From positions 1 to 57,279 of IMG/VR virus record IMGVR_UViG_3300009154_000068: a stretch of DNA of 57,279 nt; one strand, 5' to 3'. Below are positions 12,360 to 57,279 of the stretch, piece by piece (within the stretch, counting starts at the first letter, position 1; the number at the start of each line of letters is the position of its first letter). The DNA is from a virus. Taxonomy: Duplodnaviria; Caudoviricetes. The position numbers and the translations under genes are program-made. Under the pieces are notes generated by a model. It saw nothing but the letters and a program-made list of their open reading frames with translations, had not been told where the DNA came from and searched no databases.

Positions 12360-13520
12360 ATGCATTTTAGATTTCATGTATTAGGTGTCCCACACACTAT
12401 TTCTAACAAAGATTATGTAGCCTGTGCTTTTACACAAAAAGTAGTAAAATTTTGTGCTATGATGAAGGCTCGAGGGCACACTATCATCCATTATGGTCAT
12501 GAACATAGTGATGTTGAATGTGATGAAAACGTTGGAGTAACCAATGATGCCATTTTAAATGAAGCATACGGTGATCACGATTGGCATGCCAATACATTCA
12601 AATATGATTTAAATGACGTTGCTTATAAATTTTTCTATGCCAATGCTATTAGAGAAATTGGTTTGCGTAAACAAAAAAATGATTTTCTATTGTGCTTTTG
12701 GGGTTGGGGACATAAAGCCATCGCCGATGCACATCCTGATATGTTGGTGGTAGAACCGGGTATTGGATATCCTGGTGGCGTATTTGCACCATATCGTGTG
12801 TTTGAAAGTCAAAGCATAATGGCTGCTTGGTTTAATATGACTGCGGTGTCTGGACCAGGACACTTTAGTTGGTATGACGCTGTTATCCCTAATTATTTTG
12901 ATCTCAACGATTTTGACTATAACGAAGATAAAGAAGATTATTTTTTATTCTTGGGTAGAATTGGTGAACATAAAGGTGTGCATGTAGCTATTCAAACAAC
13001 TGAAGCAATTGGGGCAAAGCTAAAAATTGCTGGTCAAGGTAGTTTGGCTAGTATGGGATTGTATACCACCCCATCACATGTTGAAATGGTGGGATATGCT
13101 GATGTCGAATTGCGCAGAAAGTTAATGAGTAAAGCAAAAGGTCAATTTGTGGCTACAATGTATGGTGAACCATTTGGTGGTGTTCAAATTGAGGCAATGT
13201 TGAGCGGCACTCCGGTGATTAGTACTGATTGGGCATGTTTTGGTGAACTCAACTTGCATGGTGTTACTGGATATCGTTGTAGGACTTTTGAACATTTTAC
13301 TTGGGCCGCTAAAAACATTGGTCGTATCAATCCCAAAAACTGTCGAGATTGGGCCGCCAAAAACTTTAACTTTGATAAAATTAGTCAAATGTATGAGGAA
13401 TTCTTCTACAGTATTACTAACATTTATGGAAAAAAGGGATGGTATGAACCCAATCCTGAACGCATGCAATTAGATTGGTTGCGTAGAGAATACCCAACTC
13501 ATCCCAATAGAGAAATTTAA
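12360..13520 (+). CDS. Glycosyltransferase family 4 (GT-B)
   Basis: FLFLGRIGEHKG and EPFGGVQIEAMLSGTPVI (E-x7-E motif). Confidence 0.92.
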   Translation: MHFRFHVLGVPHTISNKDYVACAFTQKVVKFCAMMKARGHTIIHYGHEHSDVECDENVGVTNDAILNEAYGDHDWHANTFKYDLNDVAYKFFYANAIREIGLRKQKNDFLLCFWGWGHKAIADAHPDMLVVEPGIGYPGGVFAPYRVFESQSIMAAWFNMTAVSGPGHFSWYDAVIPNYFDLNDFDYNEDKEDYFLFLGRIGEHKGVHVAIQTTEAIGAKLKIAGQGSLASMGLYTTPSHVEMVGYADVELRRKLMSKAKGQFVATMYGEPFGGVQIEAMLSGTPVISTDWACFGELNLHGVTGYRCRTFEHFTWAAKNIGRINPKNCRDWAAKNFNFDKISQMYEEFFYSITNIYGKKGWYEPNPERMQLDWLRREYPTHPNREI

Positions 13521-26856: not shown

Positions 26857-27582
26857 TTATTGTCCTGTTGATACTGAAGCATCGTATTCATCAATAAAAG
26901 ATTGAAACCAACCTGTTACAAATCTATATTTTTCAGGATCATTGAAATATGAAAGGGCCACGGGAACTGATGCTTCCACTCTCTTTTTCCCAGTCGACGG
27001 TGTGCCGCCAGGAAGTATAGCTAAAGGTATGTTTGTTGATATATATGCCGTCAGGCCAATGGCACCTTCTTCCAAATCAGCTAATACAGCATCATCAACG
27101 ATGTAGTGGGCAGAAAAACTAATAATTCTTGGAATATCGTTCTTTATAGAATCAGTCAATAATACTAAGTTTGGGTCCCAATCACTGACTGGAATCGGGT
27201 CTAATACATATCCCCCATGTAATACCGAAATATCCCAATCATACATAAATATCACTGTATCTTGAGGCCGATCATTGAAAAAGAAGGATGAGAGTATTAT
27301 TGAATATCCCAAAATAGTTTGTTCTGGTATTATGGTTGTTTTGAATTTTGACCAGAACTCTTTTGGCCACAAAATTTGTATAGTCTTATCTATGTTATTA
27401 AATCTCAAATCAAATTCAAAGAGAGTGGGGGTCTCCGAATATGTTCTTATGTTTGATGCTATTTGTAAAAGTTGTACATCGGTTGGATCAGAAACTGTTA
27501 CCTTGATCACTTCGGGAACTTGATTAAATACATCAAGTAATGCGTCTAATTCGGCACTTGTTTCTTTGTTTTTGATAATCAT
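26857..27582 (-). CDS. Hypothetical protein, third gene of the radical SAM operon
   Basis: TAATG-coupled to the radical SAM gene. Confidence 0.7.
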   Translation of the reverse strand: MIIKNKETSAELDALLDVFNQVPEVIKVTVSDPTDVQLLQIASNIRTYSETPTLFEFDLRFNNIDKTIQILWPKEFWSKFKTTIIPEQTILGYSIILSSFFFNDRPQDTVIFMYDWDISVLHGGYVLDPIPVSDWDPNLVLLTDSIKNDIPRIISFSAHYIVDDAVLADLEEGAIGLTAYISTNIPLAILPGGTPSTGKKRVEASVPVALSYFNDPEKYRFVTGWFQSFIDEYDASVSTGQ

Positions 27583-29060
27583 TATACTTCCTGTATTGAT
27601 ATTGATTTGCTATAAACTTCCACGTCGTTTATAACCATTTCTTTTTTGTTAATTACTTTTATTGGGATAATTTTTTTCTTTTGTCTTTCCTGGTGATCAA
27701 AAATGGTTCCCCAAATATCTTGCCTATGTAATGGTAGAGTGTCTGACTTGATCAGTGTTGGAATATATCCATTGGTGAGTTTAGCAAAAGCCAATGCAAA
27801 TAATGCTATATTATTTGAATATGCATTTTCACATGACACATCCCAATAATTACCATCTAGGAACATGCATGATCCCTTGCAAAGATGTAGTACTGGGCAT
27901 TCGCTACATTTAATCTTACTGTCTCTAGACTTCCAATGTGTGACTGACTTAAATTCCACATTACCATAATCACTTAAATTCCCACCCAAATGACTTTCGC
28001 CATTTTTACTGGTTTCTAAAGCACTTACATTTTGGCAAGTGATTACATTTCCTTTTAAATCAACAGCAATAGATCCTGGATTATCCATACCACACTTCTG
28101 TCCCAAAAATTTTGATTCTAACTTTTGTGATATTACTGAGGTTGTGAATTGATTTATCTTATCATTGATACCGGTAAACCCAATATATCCATCTGACATA
28201 TATATATCCACAAAAGATTTTTGCCTAAATTTAAAATGATCCTCTAAACTAGTTAAAGAATTATTTATACCATCATCGTCATATGCATCAACCATTTCGC
28301 CCTCACCTAAGATAACTGATTTGTCTCCAGTGAGTTCAAAAAACCATTCATAAACAGCTTTTCTGCTAATATTTTTACCATTCAACATAGCATTAAAACT
28401 AATTTTATTTTTCGGCTTCATTATTTTGTAAAAATCTAAAATTATTTTTTTTCTTTTTGGATCTAGAAATGGATCTGGTCCTCTGACAGATTGATTTGGG
28501 CCATCATGACTAATAGCAACGGAGAAATCAAATTCTATCAACCAAGAACAAATTTCCTCAGTTAATAAAGATCCATTAGTGATTATCGAAAACATTGGTT
28601 TAGTTTCCCATTGTTTAAATTTTTCTGATAATCTTTCAGCCAATGGTTTCAATGTTTTCCAATATACCAATGGCTCTCCACCCCAAAACTCAATTTTTAG
28701 TCCTTTTTGTTCAGAAAATTCTAAGACATCTAATTTGGACATGAAATCATCAATATCTTTTTTACTAGTTTCTGTTGGTCTTTCAACAAATTTTTGACTA
28801 CAATATTCACAAGAATAATTACAGCCCAAACCTAGCTGTATCTTTAATAAATCAATTGATTTTGATTTTTTTAGCGGAAAATCTTTGGAAAATGGTATGG
28901 TCTCCTCTAAATTAACTGGGATATCATCAAAATAGCTTTTTAACTGATCAGAAGGCCCTAAAATTTTATCAAATTCATCACTAATGATATTAAGCTCATT
29001 GTCGTAGTAGAATGTTTTTTTGTCAGAAAAATTTTTTTCTGCCGTGATTTGAAATTTCAT
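27582..29060 (-). CDS. Radical SAM enzyme with SPASM domain
   Basis: CNYSCEYC, FWGGEPL, ITNG, ISHDG; C-terminal KCG...G.V..C...CSEC.....C.GSC...SC. Confidence 0.93.
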   Translation of the reverse strand: MKFQITAEKNFSDKKTFYYDNELNIISDEFDKILGPSDQLKSYFDDIPVNLEETIPFSKDFPLKKSKSIDLLKIQLGLGCNYSCEYCSQKFVERPTETSKKDIDDFMSKLDVLEFSEQKGLKIEFWGGEPLVYWKTLKPLAERLSEKFKQWETKPMFSIITNGSLLTEEICSWLIEFDFSVAISHDGPNQSVRGPDPFLDPKRKKIILDFYKIMKPKNKISFNAMLNGKNISRKAVYEWFFELTGDKSVILGEGEMVDAYDDDGINNSLTSLEDHFKFRQKSFVDIYMSDGYIGFTGINDKINQFTTSVISQKLESKFLGQKCGMDNPGSIAVDLKGNVITCQNVSALETSKNGESHLGGNLSDYGNVEFKSVTHWKSRDSKIKCSECPVLHLCKGSCMFLDGNYWDVSCENAYSNNIALFALAFAKLTNGYIPTLIKSDTLPLHRQDIWGTIFDHQERQKKKIIPIKVINKKEMVINDVEVYSKSISIQEV

Positions 29061-49208: not shown

Positions 49209-50057
49209 ATGAAAAACTATTATCAAACATTAGGTGTTAGTCCTGAAGCGACTGATGATGACATCAAAAAGGCCTATCGTGGCCTAGCAATGAAACATCA
49301 TCCAGATCGTGGCGGGGATCAAACAAAATTCCAAGAAATTCAAGAAGCATATGGGGTGCTGAGTGACCCACAAAAACGTGCGCAAATGCACCAACAACAA
49401 TTCAACCCATTTCAAAATGCCGGTGCTCCGGGAGGATTTCACTTTAGCTTTGGCGGCGGTGGTCCACAGGATATTGGTGATATTTTTAGACATTTTCAAG
49501 GTGGGAATCCATTTGATATATTTGGTCAACGTCCAAAAAATAGAGATCTAAGAGTTGTAGTTGATGTAGACTTGCCAAGCACTTTGTCCTCTCAGAAAAA
49601 AACAATCAGTGTAAAACATCTAAATGATCAAAGACAATCATTGACTGTGGATATACCAAGAGGTGTGCGTACTGGCATGCAAATGAAATATGCTGGTCAC
49701 GGTGATAATTCAGATAAAAATCTTCCGCCAGGAGATTTATTCATTGAGTTTAGAGTATTACCACATCCTAAATTTCAAATTGATGGTATTGATTTAGTTT
49801 ATACCGCACAAATTGATTGTTTGGATGCCATCACAGGAAAAAGTATTATTGTTGATGGATTGGATGGTAGACAGTTTGAATGGAGCATGCCTCCAGGAAC
49901 ACAATATGGCGCCAAATTTGTTATTCAAGGACAAGGCATTTGGGCTGTAGATCAACCCATTAAGGGCAATCTTGTAATCCAAGCCAATGTGATTATTCCA
50001 TCAGGATTAGACAGAGAAAAAATTAATTTAATCAACGAACTTAAAACAAAACTATAA
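49209..50057 (+). CDS. dnaJ: DnaJ/CbpA-type co-chaperone (no zinc finger)
   Basis: J domain with HPD, G/F linker, C-terminal GDL...HP.F...G.DL. Confidence 0.93.
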   Translation: MKNYYQTLGVSPEATDDDIKKAYRGLAMKHHPDRGGDQTKFQEIQEAYGVLSDPQKRAQMHQQQFNPFQNAGAPGGFHFSFGGGGPQDIGDIFRHFQGGNPFDIFGQRPKNRDLRVVVDVDLPSTLSSQKKTISVKHLNDQRQSLTVDIPRGVRTGMQMKYAGHGDNSDKNLPPGDLFIEFRVLPHPKFQIDGIDLVYTAQIDCLDAITGKSIIVDGLDGRQFEWSMPPGTQYGAKFVIQGQGIWAVDQPIKGNLVIQANVIIPSGLDREKINLINELKTKL

Positions 50058-50074
50058 AGAAACGATAAAAATTT

Positions 50075-52342
50075 ATGATCAATGCCAATTCAGAAATTGA
50101 GTCTATTGTAACTAGTGCGACCGATATTGCAAAAACATACAATCACGAATATGTTACTTTGGAACATTTATTCTTAAGTATGATTAAATTTGAACCATTT
50201 AAAAATATATTGATAAGTTTTGGTGTAGATTATAACGGTTTGGTTGATGAGATGGGACAATATTTAGATAGCCAAACTTATATTATTAAACATGAAAATT
50301 CCATAGCAACTGGACCAAAAAAGACTCATGCATTGGAAAGAGTATTTAATAGAGCATTGACTCAGATTCTGTTTAGTGGTCGAACACGCATACAAATCAT
50401 TGATATTTTTCTAAGTATGAGCATTGAATCTAATAGCTATGCTGGTTACTTTATAGCAAAATATGGAATCGATAAAGCAAACTTTGTACAACACTATAAC
50501 AAGAACTATAAAGAGTCTGATGGACAAAAATCAGCAATGATCCATAAAATAGATGAGATTTTAGCAGAGTACTGTACAAATCTCAATGACTTAGCCAAAG
50601 AGGGAAAAATTGATCCTGTGATTGGCAGAACTAACGAAATTGATGAAATAGTTCAAATCTTAGCTAAAAGGAATAAAAGTAATGTGCTAATGGTCGGCGA
50701 CCCAGGTGTGGGTAAGACCGCTATTGCAGAAGGACTAGCACTTAATATTGTTAATAACCATGTCCCGCACTATCTCATGTCATATATTGTTTACAATTTA
50801 GATATTGGTAGTGTGTTAGCTGGTAGCAAATATAGAGGAGAGTTTGAAGAAAAGATCAATAACATTATTTCGGCATTGACCTTAAAAGGCAATTGTATAT
50901 TGTTCATTGATGAAGCACATCAAATGCGTGGTGCGGGGTCGGGACAACAAAGCAGCGTTGACTTCAGTAATATGATTAAACCAGCACTAGCCAAAGGAAA
51001 AATTAAAGTGATCGCCAGTACTACTTGGGAAGAATATACACAGAGTTTTGAAAAGGATCGTGCGTTAATGCGTAGGTTTTATAGGCTTACCGTTGAAGAG
51101 CCTAGTCCAAGCGTAGCTAAAGATATTTTGAGGGGATTGAAAACACATTTTGAATCCTTTCATAAAGGACATATTAGTGATAGTGCAATCGAAGCAGCCG
51201 TTGATCTCAGTGTCAGATATCAAACAGATAAAAAACTGCCCGACAAAGCACTTGATCTAATAGATGCTGCATGTGCCCAACAAAAGATATTGGCAGGAGA
51301 TTTCGTAATCGATCGCAGTGATATTGTTAATATTTTAAGCAAGTATACTAAAATACCTGTGAATCAAATTGGTGAAGAAGCTGGTAATAATCTAATCGGC
51401 TTAGAGGAAAAAATTAAACAAAAACTGTATGGTCAAAATCAAGTTATCGAAACTGTTCTAGAAAAAATCTATGTAGCTAAAGCAGGGTTGAAATCATTGA
51501 ATAAGCCAATTGGCAGTTTTCTGTTCCTAGGTCCCACTGGTACTGGCAAAAGTGAATTTGCTAAATTACTAAGTGAGCACTTGGAAATGAAATTAGTTCG
51601 ATTTGATATGAGTGAATTTCAAGAAAAGCACAGTGTGGCCAAGTTGATTGGTGCTCCCCCAGGATATGTGGGCTATGATGATAGTAATTTGGCTGGTGGC
51701 GCATTAATATCGTCTTTGGAGAAAAGTCCTAATAGTATTATTTTGTTTGATGAAATTGAAAAAGCTCACCCAGATGTCAGTAACATTTTATTACAGTTGA
51801 TGGATGAGGGAACAATTACTGCTAGTAATGGGAAAAAAGCTGATGCAAGAAATACTATTATTATCTTAACAAGTAACTTGGGTGCAAGTGACAATGAGCG
51901 CAACAATATTGGCTTTGGTCGAACTTTGGAAAAATCTGGCGAAGATGACAAGGCAGTGAAGGATTTTTTCAAGCCTGAATTTAGAAATAGATTAGATGGT
52001 ATTTGTAAATTCAACAAATTAAATCAAGAAAGTATGCGTAAGATTGTTGATAAATTCATGGCAGAAACTAATGATCTTCTACATGAAAAGAAAATCAAAT
52101 TACAATTGTCACCAGCCATTGTCGATCATTTAATTGATAAGGGTTTTGATAGTAAGATGGGTGCGAGACCTCTAGCAAGGGTAATCAATGATTTAATCAA
52201 AGTTCCAGTTAGTAAGAAGATATTGTTTGGTGGTGTCACTGACGGATCAACAATTGTGGTTGATATCAATGACAGTGTTGTGGACTTTGCGATAGTTCAA
52301 GAAGTTCCATTACTTGAAACTGACGACGAGATCAAAAACTAA
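50075..52342 (+). CDS. clpA: ClpA-like double AAA+ chaperone
   Basis: Clp-N; GDPGVGKT/FIDEAH; GPTGTGKS/FDEIEKAHPDV; IGF loop; GARPL. Confidence 0.92.
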   Translation: MINANSEIESIVTSATDIAKTYNHEYVTLEHLFLSMIKFEPFKNILISFGVDYNGLVDEMGQYLDSQTYIIKHENSIATGPKKTHALERVFNRALTQILFSGRTRIQIIDIFLSMSIESNSYAGYFIAKYGIDKANFVQHYNKNYKESDGQKSAMIHKIDEILAEYCTNLNDLAKEGKIDPVIGRTNEIDEIVQILAKRNKSNVLMVGDPGVGKTAIAEGLALNIVNNHVPHYLMSYIVYNLDIGSVLAGSKYRGEFEEKINNIISALTLKGNCILFIDEAHQMRGAGSGQQSSVDFSNMIKPALAKGKIKVIASTTWEEYTQSFEKDRALMRRFYRLTVEEPSPSVAKDILRGLKTHFESFHKGHISDSAIEAAVDLSVRYQTDKKLPDKALDLIDAACAQQKILAGDFVIDRSDIVNILSKYTKIPVNQIGEEAGNNLIGLEEKIKQKLYGQNQVIETVLEKIYVAKAGLKSLNKPIGSFLFLGPTGTGKSEFAKLLSEHLEMKLVRFDMSEFQEKHSVAKLIGAPPGYVGYDDSNLAGGALISSLEKSPNSIILFDEIEKAHPDVSNILLQLMDEGTITASNGKKADARNTIIILTSNLGASDNERNNIGFGRTLEKSGEDDKAVKDFFKPEFRNRLDGICKFNKLNQESMRKIVDKFMAETNDLLHEKKIKLQLSPAIVDHLIDKGFDSKMGARPLARVINDLIKVPVSKKILFGGVTDGSTIVVDINDSVVDFAIVQEVPLLETDDEIKN

Positions 52343-53284: not shown

Positions 53285-54148
53285 ATGACTCAAGAAAATA
53301 TCAAACCCCCTGGCATTGATGCCGATGAAGTGGCTAAAAAAATTCAAAACGTCCTATTGCAAAATAAACAATCAGGACCCGAAGCCAATCAAGCTAAACC
53401 TGAAGAAAATAATCAAGATGCTAGAGCAGCATCATATGATTTTAGTAGATATCATATTCATATTGGTATGCCTTGTTATGGTGGTATGGTTAGTGAGCCC
53501 ACAATGACCAGTTTGCTTAGATTTACACTATTAGCAGCAAAACATGGACTCAATTGGAGTTTAGACACAATGGTCAATGAAAGTCTAGTGCAGCGTGGTA
53601 GGAATAATTTGATGGCTAAAATGATGGGCAATAAGAATGCAACACATTTTATGTTTATTGATGCTGATATCAGATTTCAACCAGAATCAATTTTTCAACT
53701 AGTTAGTTGTGAAAAGGATGTTGTTGCTGGGCTTTATCCAAAGAAGTCAATCCCTTCAAAATATGTGATAAATCTATTGCCACAAACTAGAATCCAAGGT
53801 GATATTTTTACAGTTGATACTGCGGGAACAGGATTTTTGTTATTCCGCCGTGAGGTTTATGAAAAGTTAATTCAAGCTCATCCAGACAGCAAATATGTGG
53901 ATGATGTGGGGATTGGCAAAGAGCATGAGCCAAATATGTATGCAATCTTTGATTGTAAGATTGATGCTAAAGGTCACTATCTAAGCGAGGACTGGTTATT
54001 CTGCCGTCGTTGGAGAGAATTGGGTGGTGAGATTTGGGCACACAGCAAGATCCTATTAAATCACGTTGGGCATTATGAATATAAGGGCGATTTAAATGAA
54101 ATGCCTAAATTTAGTTTAGCTAAGCCTGAAGAGCAAAAACAGGCGTAA
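53285..54148 (+). CDS. GT-A fold glycosyltransferase-like protein
   Basis: IGMPCYGG, ESLV.R.RN, FIDADI (DxD), GTGF, SED..FC.RW, H.G. Confidence 0.8.
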   Translation: MTQENIKPPGIDADEVAKKIQNVLLQNKQSGPEANQAKPEENNQDARAASYDFSRYHIHIGMPCYGGMVSEPTMTSLLRFTLLAAKHGLNWSLDTMVNESLVQRGRNNLMAKMMGNKNATHFMFIDADIRFQPESIFQLVSCEKDVVAGLYPKKSIPSKYVINLLPQTRIQGDIFTVDTAGTGFLLFRREVYEKLIQAHPDSKYVDDVGIGKEHEPNMYAIFDCKIDAKGHYLSEDWLFCRRWRELGGEIWAHSKILLNHVGHYEYKGDLNEMPKFSLAKPEEQKQA

Positions 54149-54211: not shown

Positions 54212-54219
54212 TATAAATA
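54212..54219 (+). promoter_or_regulatory. T4-type late promoter
   Basis: TATAAATA 4 nt before the ATG at 54224. Confidence 0.75.
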
Positions 54220-54223
54220 CATT

Positions 54224-54442
54224 ATGCGAGCAAAAGAATTTATCAAAACTAAAAAGCGCAAAGTTAAAGAGCAGGGTGCCGATTTAATGTATAGAGGTTA
54301 TCCATGTACCAAAGATTGCAGTGGACATCAAGCTGGTGATGCTTGGGCACAAGCCTGGGGTATTACTGATCCTAACCAATGTCCATATGGCAATAGCAAT
54401 AGTTTCTGGGAAGGCTGTAAAAGTGAAGCTGAAGGCAAGTAA
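54224..54442 (+). CDS. Small Cys-containing late protein
   Basis: MRAKEFI N-terminus; CTKDCSGH.AG..WA...C...SNSF.EGC. Confidence 0.75.
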   Translation: MRAKEFIKTKKRKVKEQGADLMYRGYPCTKDCSGHQAGDAWAQAWGITDPNQCPYGNSNSFWEGCKSEAEGK

Positions 54443-54453
54443 TTTGCATAAGC

Positions 54454-54461
54454 TATAAATA
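54454..54461 (+). promoter_or_regulatory. T4-type late promoter
   Basis: TATAAATA upstream of 54483. Confidence 0.75.
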
Positions 54462-54482: not shown

Positions 54483-56645
54483 ATGAAGACCACCGATTTT
54501 ATTAAAGAAAGTCAAATTGCAGATGACGCGCATGTCATGCATGTTGACCACGAAATTCAAATGGCTAGAGAAGAGTGTTATCACAGTGCCGCCAATGCCA
54601 TCAAACTTCACAAACTATTAAAACAGGTTAGTGAACAAGATGGTATTGATGCCTGGGCAAGTGAAAAAATCACATTAGCCAATGATTATCTTAGAACAGT
54701 TTGTGAGTGGTTAGAATATGAATTAATGTCTAAAAATTCTGAGCCAGAGATGGCAATTCCCGCAGCATTTGATGAAGAGTCGGCAGAGCAAATGATTGCT
54801 CGAGCCTTGAGTGAAACAACAGAAGTTTCTAAAAAAAACCAACAAAATCTAGATAAAAATCCCTGGGCCGGTATTGGGTTTGATGTAAGGTCTGACTATT
54901 TGTGGCCAGCAATGATGTTTGAGTCCACCAAAGAAGGGTCTGAGTTTTCTCAGTGGATTGGTAATTACAAACAACATTTATCGTCTCCCAAGGACAATGC
55001 CAAATGCATCTTAGCAATGGCCAATAAAATGTCAGACAAGATTATAATTTTTTATGGTATTGCTGAGTATGTGGGTGAGGATAGCAACAGTTATGTTTTA
55101 AAAATAAATTCTGGGACACATGAATATTCCAAGAACAATCAACTGGTATTTGCTTCGTCTAAGGATTTTGAGCATTTTAAAACAACATTAGCTTTAAAAT
55201 TTGGTGAGATTCCAATCAAAACAAAAAAAATGCCGGTTATGGAAACCTCACGCTCAGAGCAAGGTGTGGCGGAAGGTTTTACCAACAATGTTGATAAAGT
55301 AAAGCGTGAAATTGAACTAGCGCAACAAATGTTGGATGATCCAGATTCTGATTTTGGAACGCGCAAACTAGCATCATCTATCCTAGCACAAGCTCAACGA
55401 GAGCTATTACAATACAAAGATACGGAAGCAAGATATAAAGGTGTAGCGGAAGGCTTGAAGTCTATGTATCACAATGCTGTTGCTGACTATCATGGTCGTA
55501 AAGCAGATGATGCGTTTGACAATGGCGACGAAGAAGGCTTCAAAAAGTCTATGGACAAAAATATTAGCCATAAACTAAAAGCAGGCGAAAAGATTCCTCA
55601 GGTTCGTGATGCTAAAAAGTTTCAGCAAGGTGTGGCGGAAGGCTTGTTTGGCATTGACGATAACATCAAAGGTCGGATACAAAATATTGTTAGTGATTTG
55701 AGTGACATTCCAGGTATGTGGGATCATAAGGCACAAACATTTACTGACGCCGGTATGGACAAACTAAAGACTGTATTAAAGAACAATCCCAAGTATATCA
55801 AGTATGCCCTTAACCTTGACTACAAAGATTATGAGGCGGAAGGTGTGGCGGAAGGCTTACAGAAAATAAATTGGGTTAAACCCAATTTTGACTTTGAATG
55901 GCACGAAGTTGAAGAACAATCCAAGATGAAACAAGTCCCGGTTGATGTCAGACAGTATTATCAAAAACATTTTCCTAACAAAGATGCATGGTTAAAAGCA
56001 GTTCAAAATGGTAAGGCAGTTGTAGTGCCACCCGACCATGCCTATGAGATAAGAAATGCTCCGTTTGATAAAGCAGCTTTACAAAAAGTTTTAGCACCTA
56101 CTGGTCACGAAGGTCCTATAGGTCCAGCAAAAGAAAAAAGAGTAAATGATTTGTTTGATAAAGGTCAAGTAGAAATGCCTATCATACTAAAAACAAGTCA
56201 AGGACTGTGGTTAATAGGTGGCAAAACACGATTGGGCACAGCAAATTATGTTAAAGGATTACCTGCTAAAGTTTGGCTGATAGGTGGCAAGCAAGGTGTG
56301 GCGGAAGAGTGGAGTCAAAAATACAAAAGCAGTATCAATTGCAGTCACCCCAAAGGATTCTCACAAAAGGCCCACTGTGCTGGTAAGAAGAAACACAATG
56401 AAAGTATAGAGATGGAAGTAGTTTGCCCAGACTGTGGCATGTGTGAAGCTCACGGTAATAGTAAAATCTACAACAAGTGCTGGACAGGTTTTAGAAAAGT
56501 TCCAGGCAAAAAACGCGGAGAAGAAGGTAGCTGTGAAAAGATTGGCGAAGACGCAGACGCAAGTTCTTCATCCAGTGTTAGTATAGCAGCAGCTCCACCA
56601 CAAAATTTATTTAAAAAGCCAATTAAAAGGACTACCAAAAAATGA
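54483..56645 (+). CDS. Modular polyprotein-like internal head protein with five GVAE(G/E) junctions
   Basis: Starts MKTTDFIKE; modules delimited by a 16-bp repeat; one module is ParB/Srx-like. Confidence 0.75.
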   Translation: MKTTDFIKESQIADDAHVMHVDHEIQMAREECYHSAANAIKLHKLLKQVSEQDGIDAWASEKITLANDYLRTVCEWLEYELMSKNSEPEMAIPAAFDEESAEQMIARALSETTEVSKKNQQNLDKNPWAGIGFDVRSDYLWPAMMFESTKEGSEFSQWIGNYKQHLSSPKDNAKCILAMANKMSDKIIIFYGIAEYVGEDSNSYVLKINSGTHEYSKNNQLVFASSKDFEHFKTTLALKFGEIPIKTKKMPVMETSRSEQGVAEGFTNNVDKVKREIELAQQMLDDPDSDFGTRKLASSILAQAQRELLQYKDTEARYKGVAEGLKSMYHNAVADYHGRKADDAFDNGDEEGFKKSMDKNISHKLKAGEKIPQVRDAKKFQQGVAEGLFGIDDNIKGRIQNIVSDLSDIPGMWDHKAQTFTDAGMDKLKTVLKNNPKYIKYALNLDYKDYEAEGVAEGLQKINWVKPNFDFEWHEVEEQSKMKQVPVDVRQYYQKHFPNKDAWLKAVQNGKAVVVPPDHAYEIRNAPFDKAALQKVLAPTGHEGPIGPAKEKRVNDLFDKGQVEMPIILKTSQGLWLIGGKTRLGTANYVKGLPAKVWLIGGKQGVAEEWSQKYKSSINCSHPKGFSQKAHCAGKKKHNESIEMEVVCPDCGMCEAHGNSKIYNKCWTGFRKVPGKKRGEEGSCEKIGEDADASSSSSVSIAAAPPQNLFKKPIKRTTKK

Positions 56646-57012
56646 AAACCAAATTTATTTTAGAAACTTCAACATTAGAAGATGTTTTGATGACAAAATA
56701 TCAGGACATGAAAGAGGCTTGTAATGTTTGTAAACAGACTCCATGCCAATGTAAAAAATCTGATGAAAAAGAACTGGCGGAAGGTTATTTCAATCATAGT
56801 ATCGATGATGCATTCAAAATGCTCGATGATCTAATGCGTCAAGAACGTGATTTAGACATTGAGCCAATGCTAAAAAGGTTATCACCGGAGCTTCAAAAAC
56901 AACTGGTCCAGTGGGCCCAAACAGATGGCAAAGCCGCTGTGGCTAATGACGAGTATCCAGAAGCAGATTGGGCAGCAAGGATTAACAAATATTTGCATGG
57001 TGTGGCGGAAGG
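55261..57012 (+). repeat. Dispersed in-frame direct repeat AAGGTGTGGCGGAAGG
   Basis: Copies at 55261, 55438 (1 mismatch), 55627, 55840, 56293 (1 mismatch) and 56997 (1 mismatch); partial TGGCGGAAGG at 56775. Confidence 0.95.
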
Positions 57013-57279
57013 CTCGACTGGTCTATCTATACAACAACTGGCCACCATCAGCGATGAAGCATTAGATAATGCTTATCATTATGGTCGTAGTACCCCAGGT
57101 AATACATTTGGCTGGCAAGCAAACTTGAAGTCAGCGGCTTATGCTAAACAAATGATTGACAAGGGTGTTACTAATATTGAAGCCATTAGCGATGCTATTC
57201 ATAAAGGTTGGAATACCACTGCTCAAGCATTTGTAAAAAATCCTGATCAATTCAGTGACACCGAAAAACTAAAAGCCGC
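56642..57279 (+). CDS. Second modular polyprotein-like protein (3' truncated, not in ORF track)
   Basis: ATGA overlap; MKTKFILE...CNVCKQTPCQC...ELAEG...HGVAEG...; open to the window end. Confidence 0.8.
   Translation, partial: MKTKFILETSTLEDVLMTKYQDMKEACNVCKQTPCQCKKSDEKELAEGYFNHSIDDAFKMLDDLMRQERDLDIEPMLKRLSPELQKQLVQWAQTDGKAAVANDEYPEADWAARINKYLHGVAEGSTGLSIQQLATISDEALDNAYHYGRSTPGNTFGWQANLKSAAYAKQMIDKGVTNIEAISDAIHKGWNTTAQAFVKNPDQFSDTEKLKA

Follow-up and report, generated by a model that had tools for sequence, protein, structure and literature searches.

A nucleotide-fixed, in-frame linker at which cassettes are exchanged in putative capsid-cargo polyproteins of an uncultured jumbo phage

The IMG/VR virus record IMGVR_UViG_3300009154_000068 (Duplodnaviria; Caudoviricetes) is a stretch of 57,279 bp, which was analysed over its full length and is referred to here as the window. 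Close to its end, a short repeat that encodes the peptide Gly-Val-Ala-Glu (GVAE) connects unrelated protein modules within one long open reading frame (ORF A) and recurs in the next one (ORF B). It was found that this repeat is a crossover point at which cassettes are exchanged in frame, and that both its peptide and its nucleotides are held. We consider it probable that the linker has a double use, as homology for recombination and as a site for the prohead protease, in polyproteins whose cargo would resemble the internal proteins (IPs) of phage T4. The comparative data are metagenomic contigs and Logan contigs throughout.

In the window, the 16-mer AAGGTGTGGCGGAAGG occurs six times with zero to one mismatch, always on the + strand. 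Repeats 1 to 5 lie in ORF A (54483..56645, 720 amino acids, aa) at 55261..55276 (QGVAEG, no mismatches), 55438..55453 (KGVAEG, one synonymous mismatch, GTA), 55627..55642 (QGVAEG), 55840 (EGVAEG) and 56293..56308 (QGVAEE). Repeat 6 (HGVAEG, 56997..57012) lies in ORF B, which is open at its 3' end (56642..57279). All six copies are read in frame, and the peptide consensus within the window is (Q/K/E/H)-G-V-A-E-(G/E). When two mismatches were allowed the same six copies were returned and none further, and the repeat core was found neither on the reverse strand nor elsewhere in the 57,279-bp contig. By chance 0.01 copies would be expected, as estimated from 100 shuffles, none of which reached six. 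The start-to-start spacings within ORF A are 177, 189, 213 and 453 bp, corresponding to 59, 63, 71 and 151 codons. A half-duplication, GGCGGAAGG, is present at 55835, where it forms a 9-nt partial tandem duplication with repeat 4 (AEGVAEG, 55835..55855), and a partial copy, again GGCGGAAGG, is found within ORF B at 56776..56784, where it reads LAEG.

The eight modules bounded by the motif are mutually unrelated: the best pairwise BLASTP E-value was 0.054 (in a database of these eight modules only), and the weak matches between modules consist mostly of the common linker tail. The codons of the linker run against the preference of the genome. In 50 long ORFs of the window the GC content at third codon positions is 0.286, while GTG accounts for 0.18 of the Val codons and GCG for 0.095 of the Ala codons. 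From this usage the probability that one GVAE is written as GGT GTG GCG GAA is 0.0057, whereas five of the six copies are written in this way. An earlier note on this DNA, made from the sequence alone, had described the repeat copies, the partial copy and the half-duplication, the spacing in multiples of three, the unrelated intervening sequences and the wobble positions fixed against codon preference; each of these descriptions was borne out, and the count over the whole window added no further copies.

The word is not confined to the window. An exact scan of IMG/VR with its 14-nt core returned at least 120 loci, and 28 of the 120 listed carry two to four exact copies. Among the matches listed, 135 of 160 copies are read as GVAEG within an ORF of 150 aa or more. 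Conservation reaches beyond the core, with CAA as the usual codon before it and GGC as the usual codon for the Gly after it, so that the word measures about 18-20 nt; its flanks are diverse. This extended word, CAA GGT GTG GCG GAA GGC, is nearly invariant. As a control, the scan was repeated with a synonymous word containing GTT and GCT, which are commoner codons. Among the matches listed, none of 119 loci carried two or more copies of the control word (vs 28 of 120 for the real word), and only 8 copies of the control word were preceded by Gln, vs 89 of the real one. The copies of a large viral record are grouped at one to three loci. A 17-mer was found at no fewer than 120 loci of bacterial and archaeal genomes; among those listed 107 have one copy, 13 have two and none has three or more, and the two-copy loci are all GC-rich (0.51-0.73 GC). 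With no locus of three or more copies among the matches listed, the bacterial matches were rejected as arrays and are read as chance or unrelated occurrences.

Synonymous sites were tested without ASCERTAINMENT by the word, on relatives chosen through protein similarity to the modules of ORF A. Of the candidate stretches, 109 of 110 were confirmed and 80 were kept, and these contain 175 GVAE motifs with non-identical context, 174 of them scorable. GGT was used in 164 of the 174 motifs (background in the same ORFs: 0.46), GTG in 148 (0.21), GCG in 152 (0.10) and GAA in 149 (0.81). Because sequences chosen by protein similarity are related to each other, an internal control was added, in which the three four-fold degenerate motif sites of 22 distinct junctions between GVAE and cassette A6, the last one of ORF A, were compared with strictly invariant Pro, Gly and Ala residues inside A6. 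The top codon was found at 63 of 66 four-fold sites of the motif, vs 73 of 110 sites of the invariant cassette residues (Fisher p=2.3e-6). When copies were instead defined on the DNA (at most one mismatch to the 12-nt core), 178 of 179 were in frame, each within an ORF of 150 aa or more. Of these 178, 113 match exactly, 41 differ by a synonymous change and 24 by a non-synonymous one, i.e., about 10 changes per synonymous site vs 3 per non-synonymous site. From the frame and the change counts it follows that peptide and nucleotides of the linker are both held. The constraint on the synonymous positions exceeds what codon usage and the phylogenetic control would give, and the claim of the earlier note that a constraint acts on the DNA besides the peptide is upheld by the GTG and GCG counts, by the A6 control and by the control word.

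A fixed synonymous position may also serve the mRNA or its translation, through a pause on rare codons (GTG and GCG) at domain borders or through a purine-rich, Shine-Dalgarno-like stretch, with recombination as a secondary matter. The rarity of both codons in this genome agrees with such a role, as does the coding frame of nearly all DNA-defined copies. However, the common codons GGT and GAA are equally fixed, the unrelated flanks make a conserved RNA structure impossible, and the break points of the exchanges described below are located inside the word itself. A pause would also not need one single word across some 500 unrelated cassette families. That the fixation primarily serves mRNA or translation is, in our judgement, decidedly unlikely.

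Exchange at the repeat can be observed directly when the window is compared to contig L131. In the window, ORF A is composed of six cassettes separated by five linkers: A1 (54483..55274, 264 aa), A2 (55275..55451, 59 aa), A3 (55452..55640, 63 aa), A4 (55641..55853, 71 aa), A5 (55854..56306, 151 aa) and A6 (56307..56642, 112 aa). In L131 the corresponding ORF consists of residues 1-114 of A1 (92% identical), other sequence, an A2-like cassette, A3 (97% identical; 94% in L135) and A6, while A4 and A5 are missing; the common modules are 92-97% identical. At the nucleotide level, 45 of 45 positions are identical to the left of repeat 3 and through the repeat, after which L131 continues near-identical to the sequence right of repeat 5. 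Repeats 3 and 5 are the left and right crossover points of this presence/absence difference. The same is seen in a 2632-nt contig from an independent public run (X4), which also lacks A4: 55623 is joined directly to 56290, so that 666 nt are skipped, and 18 letters at the joint fit both sides. In this contig a part of A2 has been replaced as well, giving a third architecture. The ORF B of L131 is nucleotide-identical to that of the window up to and through repeat 6 and is unrelated beyond it. Finally, contig joints or loose ends in four runs were located at 55265-55277, 55454, 55622-55648, 55838-55864 and 56289-56310, which are the five repeats of ORF A; the short-sided ones among these joints may stem from other phages of the community. 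Parts of the stretch have no cover in these runs, e.g., around 55650-55759, and nothing is concluded from such gaps.

Single cassettes recur in other contexts. A5 could be aligned over its entire length (1-151 of 151) at 94-97% identity in six loci (L122-L127), in host ORFs of 483 to 1589 aa with different neighbours. GVAE stands at both of its ends in L122-L126, while the sole GVAE of L127 lies far downstream. A6-like pieces were found in 57 ORFs, and residues ~21-85 of A1 recur within other polyproteins. More generally, in 237 motif-bearing ORFs, internal BLASTP high-scoring segment pairs (HSPs) start at positions -2 to +1 of the motif in 1214 of 5320 cases, vs about 89 of 5320 for random positions, and end at 0 to +2 of the motif in 659 of 5300. 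Clustering under an 80% mutual-coverage rule sorted 648 segments into 499 cassette families; single-linkage clustering at 60% coverage was dropped, as it chained 347 segments in one cluster. Among the 28 families with at least three members, more than one upstream neighbour was seen in 14 and more than one downstream neighbour in 18. Tandem GVAEGVAE is present in L169, L170 and L172, and the AEGVAEG duplication at 55835-55855 is read as the footprint of an out-of-register exchange. The repeat is a crossover point, and in-frame exchange takes place at the word. The proposal of the earlier note that cassettes are gained, lost or swapped at the repeat is confirmed here (L131, the X4 contig and the HSP break points), and a sign that it had named as support, the same cassette in different host ORFs, is seen as well (A5 and A6).

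It could be objected that the shuffling is an assembly artefact, with chimeric contigs joined at the repeat. Many contigs do end near the repeat, and so does the window, 267 nt after repeat 6. However, the common word of about 18 nt should be shorter than assembler k-mers and cannot then join contigs by itself, and the same A3-A6 junction was recovered in the IMG/VR contig L131 and in a Logan contig of another run. All junctions are, moreover, in frame in long ORFs. Because the word is shorter than the k-mers and the junction occurs in two independent assemblies, an artefact is extremely improbable. Contigs such as L004, L037, L061, L064, L066 and L072 start or end within ~100 nt of a linker copy, and it appears that assemblies are interrupted where the population varies in its cassettes.

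The earlier note had called the array integron-like, and a true integron-like system would require a dedicated site-specific recombinase or nuclease that reads the 16-20-nt word. The word is far more uniform than the peptide demands, as might be expected under such an enzyme, and the partial tandem duplications (at 55835 and in L169, L170 and L172) could be read as its repair scars. The search covered two recombinase families. For the tyrosine recombinases (PF00589) no match was obtained in the window or in five large relatives, one of which is rated 100% complete, and for the resolvases (PF00239), searched in the window only, none was obtained there. The 16-mer, as read from the sequence, has no dyad symmetry or attC-like fold. 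In T4-type phages, furthermore, recombination needs only 'small (<50 bp) patches' of homology, according to the part of the source consulted (PMC2839356). After a search that covered these two recombinase families, a dedicated enzyme is highly improbable in our estimate, and this part of the earlier proposal is not sustained. General homologous recombination at 18-20 nt of homology is the simpler reading.

The proteins joined in this way may be cargo of the capsid. In T4, the prohead protease gp21 cleaves after L/I-X-E, and proteins can be targeted to the prohead by no more than the 10 N-terminal residues of IPIII, as stated in the parts seen of two papers (PMC9026906; PMC5694885). In the T4 record, IPII and IPIII start with MKTYQEFIAE and IPI with MKTFKEFTST. 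Leaders of about ten residues ending in L/I-X-E were recognised, by eye and by regular expression, on both window ORFs: MKTTDFIKE on ORF A (54483..54509; it resembles the IPII/IPIII leader and ends in I-K-E) and MKTKFILE on ORF B. The gene following ORF B in L121 and L131 starts with MKLIDLFFE. Among the 68 ORFs with several linkers and a complete 5' end, many start alike, e.g., with MNLFDLFES, MRANEFIVE or MKITSLLEA. Under a strict pattern, 26 of 133 GVAE-bearing ORFs have such a leader, vs 124 of 1686 other ORFs of the same loci. In the related loci L001-L200, 153 distinct leader-type ORFs were counted, 68 of which start with MRA (typically MRAxEF(I/V/L)xE); most of them are without a GVAE linker. 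It seems that these phages possess leader-tagged small proteins in very large sets.

Genes that could serve such processing are present in relatives. A prohead protease gene of the S77 family was found in 7 of 10 large records tried, and in 6 of 8 with verified polyprotein relatives, where the two lacking it are 72% and 45% complete. A gp23-type capsid gene was found in all five large relatives tried, though not in the window. The capsid proteins of the relatives have LLAE, YLKE, NLLE or NLAE about 44 residues in, just before the conserved core, and their scaffolds have VAEG, VAEA or IAEA at conserved places. From these sites, the S77 enzyme of the clade plausibly accepts V/L/I-x-E. VAE itself fits hydrophobic-x-E. 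Stand-alone versions of two cassettes point in the same direction. In a stand-alone A6 the cassette begins right after the leader Glu (MKIHELLTE followed by TWSQKYK), compared to GVAE followed by EWSQKYK in the polyprotein. A stand-alone A5 (P0019) has the leader MKFFDIMFE followed by TRMVPIKWTKPNFDFE, compared to GVAE followed by GLQKINWVKPNFDFE. In both cases leader and linker are in nearly the same register. From these features we infer, in line with the earlier note, that VAE is a site for a gp21-type prohead protease and that the cassettes are capsid cargo.

The linker could instead be a mere spacer between domains, or the site of another protease from host or phage, in multi-domain proteins that stay in the cytoplasm; the DNA would still shuffle the cassettes. 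It would fit this explanation that neither ORF A nor ORF B matches a Pfam or PHROG virion family, that no S77 gene lies on the window fragment, and that the peptide is conserved beyond hydrophobic-x-E, which gp21-type enzymes do not need as far as the part seen of PMC9026906 goes. It does not account, however, for the T4-like leaders on the window ORFs and on many relatives, for stand-alone cassettes that start exactly after the leader Glu, or for the S77 and gp23-type genes in most large relatives. Pfam also found no peptidase domain among 48 polyproteins. All in all, a spacer or a site for another protease is unlikely, and cleavage of the cargo by the prohead protease is the reading we prefer.

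Several observations weigh against this preferred reading. Only 26 of 133 GVAE-bearing ORFs have a leader under the strict pattern, with start codons picked naively. The octamer TATAAATA, which we take to be the T4 late-promoter consensus, stands upstream of only 3 of 153 leader-type ORFs in the related loci; there is no enrichment, and a late promoter as general feature of such ORFs was rejected on this count. S77 was not found in the 16%-complete window, nor in three of the ten large records, i.e., G003 (99% complete, with a single 14-mer match), G004 (72%) and G010 (45%). The V at P3 is not the L or I of the T4 rule, and the inferred capsid sites of the relatives use L. The fixed G at P4, Q at P5 and G at P1' also exceed the needs of gp21-type enzymes as reported in the part seen of PMC9026906; in view of this strictness, the conservation of the peptide could be a by-product of DNA homogenisation and not a protease requirement. 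The HSP pairs and the motif counts are phylogenetically non-independent. Finally, GVAEG-coding sites, sought with a degenerate pattern, were present in none of five cultured genomes (PA5oct, Phosso, Atu_ph07, GAP32 and cyanophage S-SM2). Folding of an S77 alignment (six relatives) together with a 40-residue linker stretch from ORF A gave a score of 0.02 with the mark at 0.32, which speaks neither for nor against binding.

The following mechanism would combine these elements. ORF A, ORF B and a third gene that follows just outside the window would be cargo genes akin to those of the T4 IPs, each with a leader of the type M-K-T-x-x-F-I-x-E, in which unrelated small cassettes are fused in frame via one linker, (Q/E/K)-G-V-A-E-(G/E). 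On the DNA level, general recombination would use the ~18-20 nt of homology to swap, delete, insert or duplicate cassettes while the frame is kept. The machinery would presumably be the phage's own UvsX, UvsY, gp32 and UvsW homologues. Cassettes flanked by the consensus would be copied most readily into new contexts, which would keep the word uniform with no need for group selection. On the peptide level, the leader would bring the polyprotein into the prohead core, where a gp21-type protease (MEROPS S77) would cut V-A-E before G; the separated cassettes would then be delivered together with the DNA.

A further step can be proposed, to which we give somewhat less than an even chance. The word would then be a self-propagating recombination signal within coding DNA, kept uniform by its own mobility and by the need for a protease site, and it would maintain a community-wide library of capsid-delivered proteins. 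Such a library would be re-dealt in frame between co-infecting jumbo phages and within genomes, without a dedicated recombinase; in the present sample it would comprise the 499 families counted above.

If the proposed mechanism is true, one short sequence would allow many small proteins to be loaded into a capsid from few genes and to be freed afterwards, and proteins could be swapped rapidly in the arms race with the host without the reading frame ever being broken. It would also provide a concrete example, open to testing, in which selection on synonymous sites (or selfish spread) maintains a recombination substrate within coding DNA. Hundreds of uncharacterised cassette families would be flagged as candidate injected proteins for host takeover or counter-defence, and a natural design would be suggested for packaging multiple cargoes in T4-type capsid delivery systems. 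The variability of the cassettes would, in addition, explain the assembly breaks at these loci.

Further features surround the two polyprotein ORFs, all on the + strand. An octamer TATAAATA at 54212..54219 is located 12 nt upstream of a small ORF of 72 aa (54224..54442), which starts with MRAKEFIK. This leader resembles the MRAxEF(I/V/L)xE type of the related loci, with the closing Glu absent, and the ORF is kept beside ORF A in L131. A second octamer, at 54454..54461, precedes the start of ORF A by 29 nt. The ATG of ORF B overlaps the stop codon of ORF A (ATGA), and 212 aa of ORF B are seen before the window ends; its homologue in L131 counts 584 aa. In L121 (943-2386), a contig that is 100% identical to the window over residues 402-720 of ORF A, ORF B is split by a frame change in cassette B2 compared to the window, which may be a real frameshift or an assembly error; the partial linker copy mentioned above lies inside cassette B1. 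Over the whole window, TATAAATA occurs 12 times vs 7.3 expected, and 7 of the 12 copies sit 12-29 nt upstream of the start of an ORF on the same strand (4305, 9497, 29628 on the - strand, 34077, 41656, 54212 and 54454). These seven are candidate T4-type late promoters, judged from motif and position. Six metatranscriptome runs contain small shares of the window stretch.

As to the source, the window is the whole IMG/VR record and is classed as linear, with a CheckV completeness estimate of 16%. For a record of 57,279 bp, this estimate means that the window is a fragment and that the whole phage measures roughly 350 kb. An uncultured freshwater jumbo phage with T4-type core genes is the best explanation. 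The window encodes a T4-type large terminase, a UvsW-like helicase, gp32-, UvsX- and UvsY-like proteins, a radical-SAM protein (27582-29060, - strand) and a tail fibre with an S74 chaperone. By its terminase, the nearest cultured phage is the Pseudomonas jumbo phage PA5oct (54.8% identity), followed by Phosso, Atu_ph07 and GAP32. About 2 kb upstream of the cargo locus, at 49209-52342, lies a chaperone/unfoldase pair that consists of DnaJ (J domain and DnaJ_C) and, directly behind it, a 755-aa Clp-type double AAA+ ATPase with the domains Clp_N, AAA, AAA_2 and ClpB_D2-small. Two glycosyltransferase-like genes are found at 12360-13520 (PHROG 3408) and 53285-54148 (PHROG 1574/34859); the second of these lies shortly before the cargo locus. 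A 68-aa ORF (1269-1475) in the packaging/head region, shortly before the terminase gene, has the leader-like start MKTLMEYIQE; no family was matched by it. Among the large records, G006 (the record behind L164 and L170) has a linker pair at 176504/176885 that recurs at 524057/524438, 347,553 bp apart. This suggests that this 524,565-bp record, labelled linear and 100% complete, is a ~1.5x concatemer of a genome of ~348 kb.

Neither Pfam nor PHROG gave a family at useful thresholds for ORF A as a whole, for ORF B or for the cassettes taken singly. For A5 a fold was predicted with a predicted local distance difference test (pLDDT) value of 89. The top PDB neighbours of the model are all ParB, sulfiredoxin, Noc or Osa proteins, albeit below significance (best E-value 0.08, template modelling score ~0.3), and an Atlas search gave the same ParB/Srx lead. 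L-I-G-G-x-x-R is invariant in the A5 family, comparable to the GxxR-type motif of ParB/Srx, though there is no Pfam match; A5 may have a divergent ParB/sulfiredoxin-like fold. The Pfam scan mentioned above covered 48 non-redundant polyproteins, i.e., 47 kept by size from 92 candidates plus ORF A of the window. DUF6321 was matched in five, GNAT in four, DUF6934 in three, and dCMP deaminase and the SutA RNAP-binding domain in two each, while ParB_N, a cytidylyltransferase-like domain (CTP_transf_like) and LysM occurred once each. Most cassettes have no assigned family. In the polyproteins of L123, L137 and L191, N-terminal modules resembling HxGH-type nucleotidyltransferases were recognised by eye.

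The Cys-rich A6, which starts with WSQKYK...PKGFSQKAHC, is the most widespread cassette and has relatives in genes of cyanomyoviruses. When ORF A was compared to cultured phages by tblastn, only short A6-like matches were obtained, in 17 cyanophage records, and the L123 polyprotein gave one weak record. In cyanophage S-SM2 (L219), the 142-aa protein SSM2_108 starts with MKTLKQFLKE and ends in an A6-like module (WSNKYK...PKGFSQKAHC). Its gene lies two genes upstream of the terminase gene (gp17), with SSM2_109 in between. Cassettes of the L055 polyprotein match hypothetical proteins in 363 cyanophage records. The cyanomyoviruses may share the cargo family without the linker.

In a search that left supplementary files outside, no published description was found of an in-frame linker, fixed in its nucleotides, by which a protease-type site is repeated and unrelated domains are joined in polyproteins resembling capsid cargo. 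By analogy, the system would work like the T4 internal proteins, the PeSL cassettes and the polyvalent proteins combined. With IPI, IPII and IPIII of T4 it has in common a short N-terminal leader that ends in hydrophobic-x-Glu, with diverse, fast-changing cargo behind it, and T4-type head genes in the relatives. Conserved sequences at the IP loci of T4 have been proposed to mediate shuffling (Repoila 1994, as cited in the part seen of PMC2839356; also PMC3012670 and PMC9026906, parts seen). In T4, however, every IP is encoded by a separate small gene, and conservation concerns the leader and regulatory blocks between genes. The present system has as many as seven linker copies (eight cassettes) per frame, and the internal cleavage-type linker is fixed in its nucleotides, while packaging and cleavage would follow by analogy.

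In the PeSL cassettes (Arbiol et al. 2010, PMC2839356; Comeau et al. 2014, PMC4122927; the former consulted in part), short conserved DNA also flanks ORFan cassettes and crossovers occur inside it. Their 'linker sequences' are described in PMC2839356 as homologous-recombination sites for insertion, deletion and replacement, and are compared by its authors with integrons. In contrast to the linker word, which is ~18-20 nt long, coding, bound to the frame (178 of 179 copies) and encodes a peptide motif, the PeSL are ~100 bp long, intergenic and regulatory (promoter and stem-loop). An in-frame precedent is offered by the glycine-rich motifs (GRMs) of the gp38 adhesins, which separate hypervariable segments (Trojet et al. 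2011, PMC3157838, as far as consulted). The GRMs are, however, parts of one folded domain in a fixed order, whereas the segments of the window are unrelated whole domains, free in order and number.

In integrons, too, cassettes arranged in an array can be exchanged at a short sequence that recurs. Here the cassettes form one fused protein instead of separate genes, and the system is not classed as an integron because an integrase, in the window and five large relatives, and attC-like features, in the word, were looked for and not found. In the phiKZ/SPN3US-type phages, ejection and inner-body proteins are cut after Glu at S/A-X-E or A-X-E, some of them multiply (PMC5694885; PMC9026906). This is carried out by proteases of another family, S80, in another phage lineage, and the parts seen of these papers report no repeated nucleotide-conserved linker or cassette exchange. 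The polyvalent proteins (Iyer et al. 2017, PMC5512222, seen in part) likewise consist of many effector-type domains, unrelated to each other and united in a single polypeptide; ParB-like and GNAT domains are among them, and the domains found in the 48 polyproteins resemble this set. They enter with the invading DNA, and their processing into units has been proposed. The word 'linker' has no occurrence in the main text of that source, so that no linker is described there under this name. Their processing is ascribed to an embedded zincin-like metallopeptidase, of which Pfam found none in ORF A or in the 48 polyproteins; in the system of the window, the cut would instead be encoded by the same short word at which the cassettes are exchanged.

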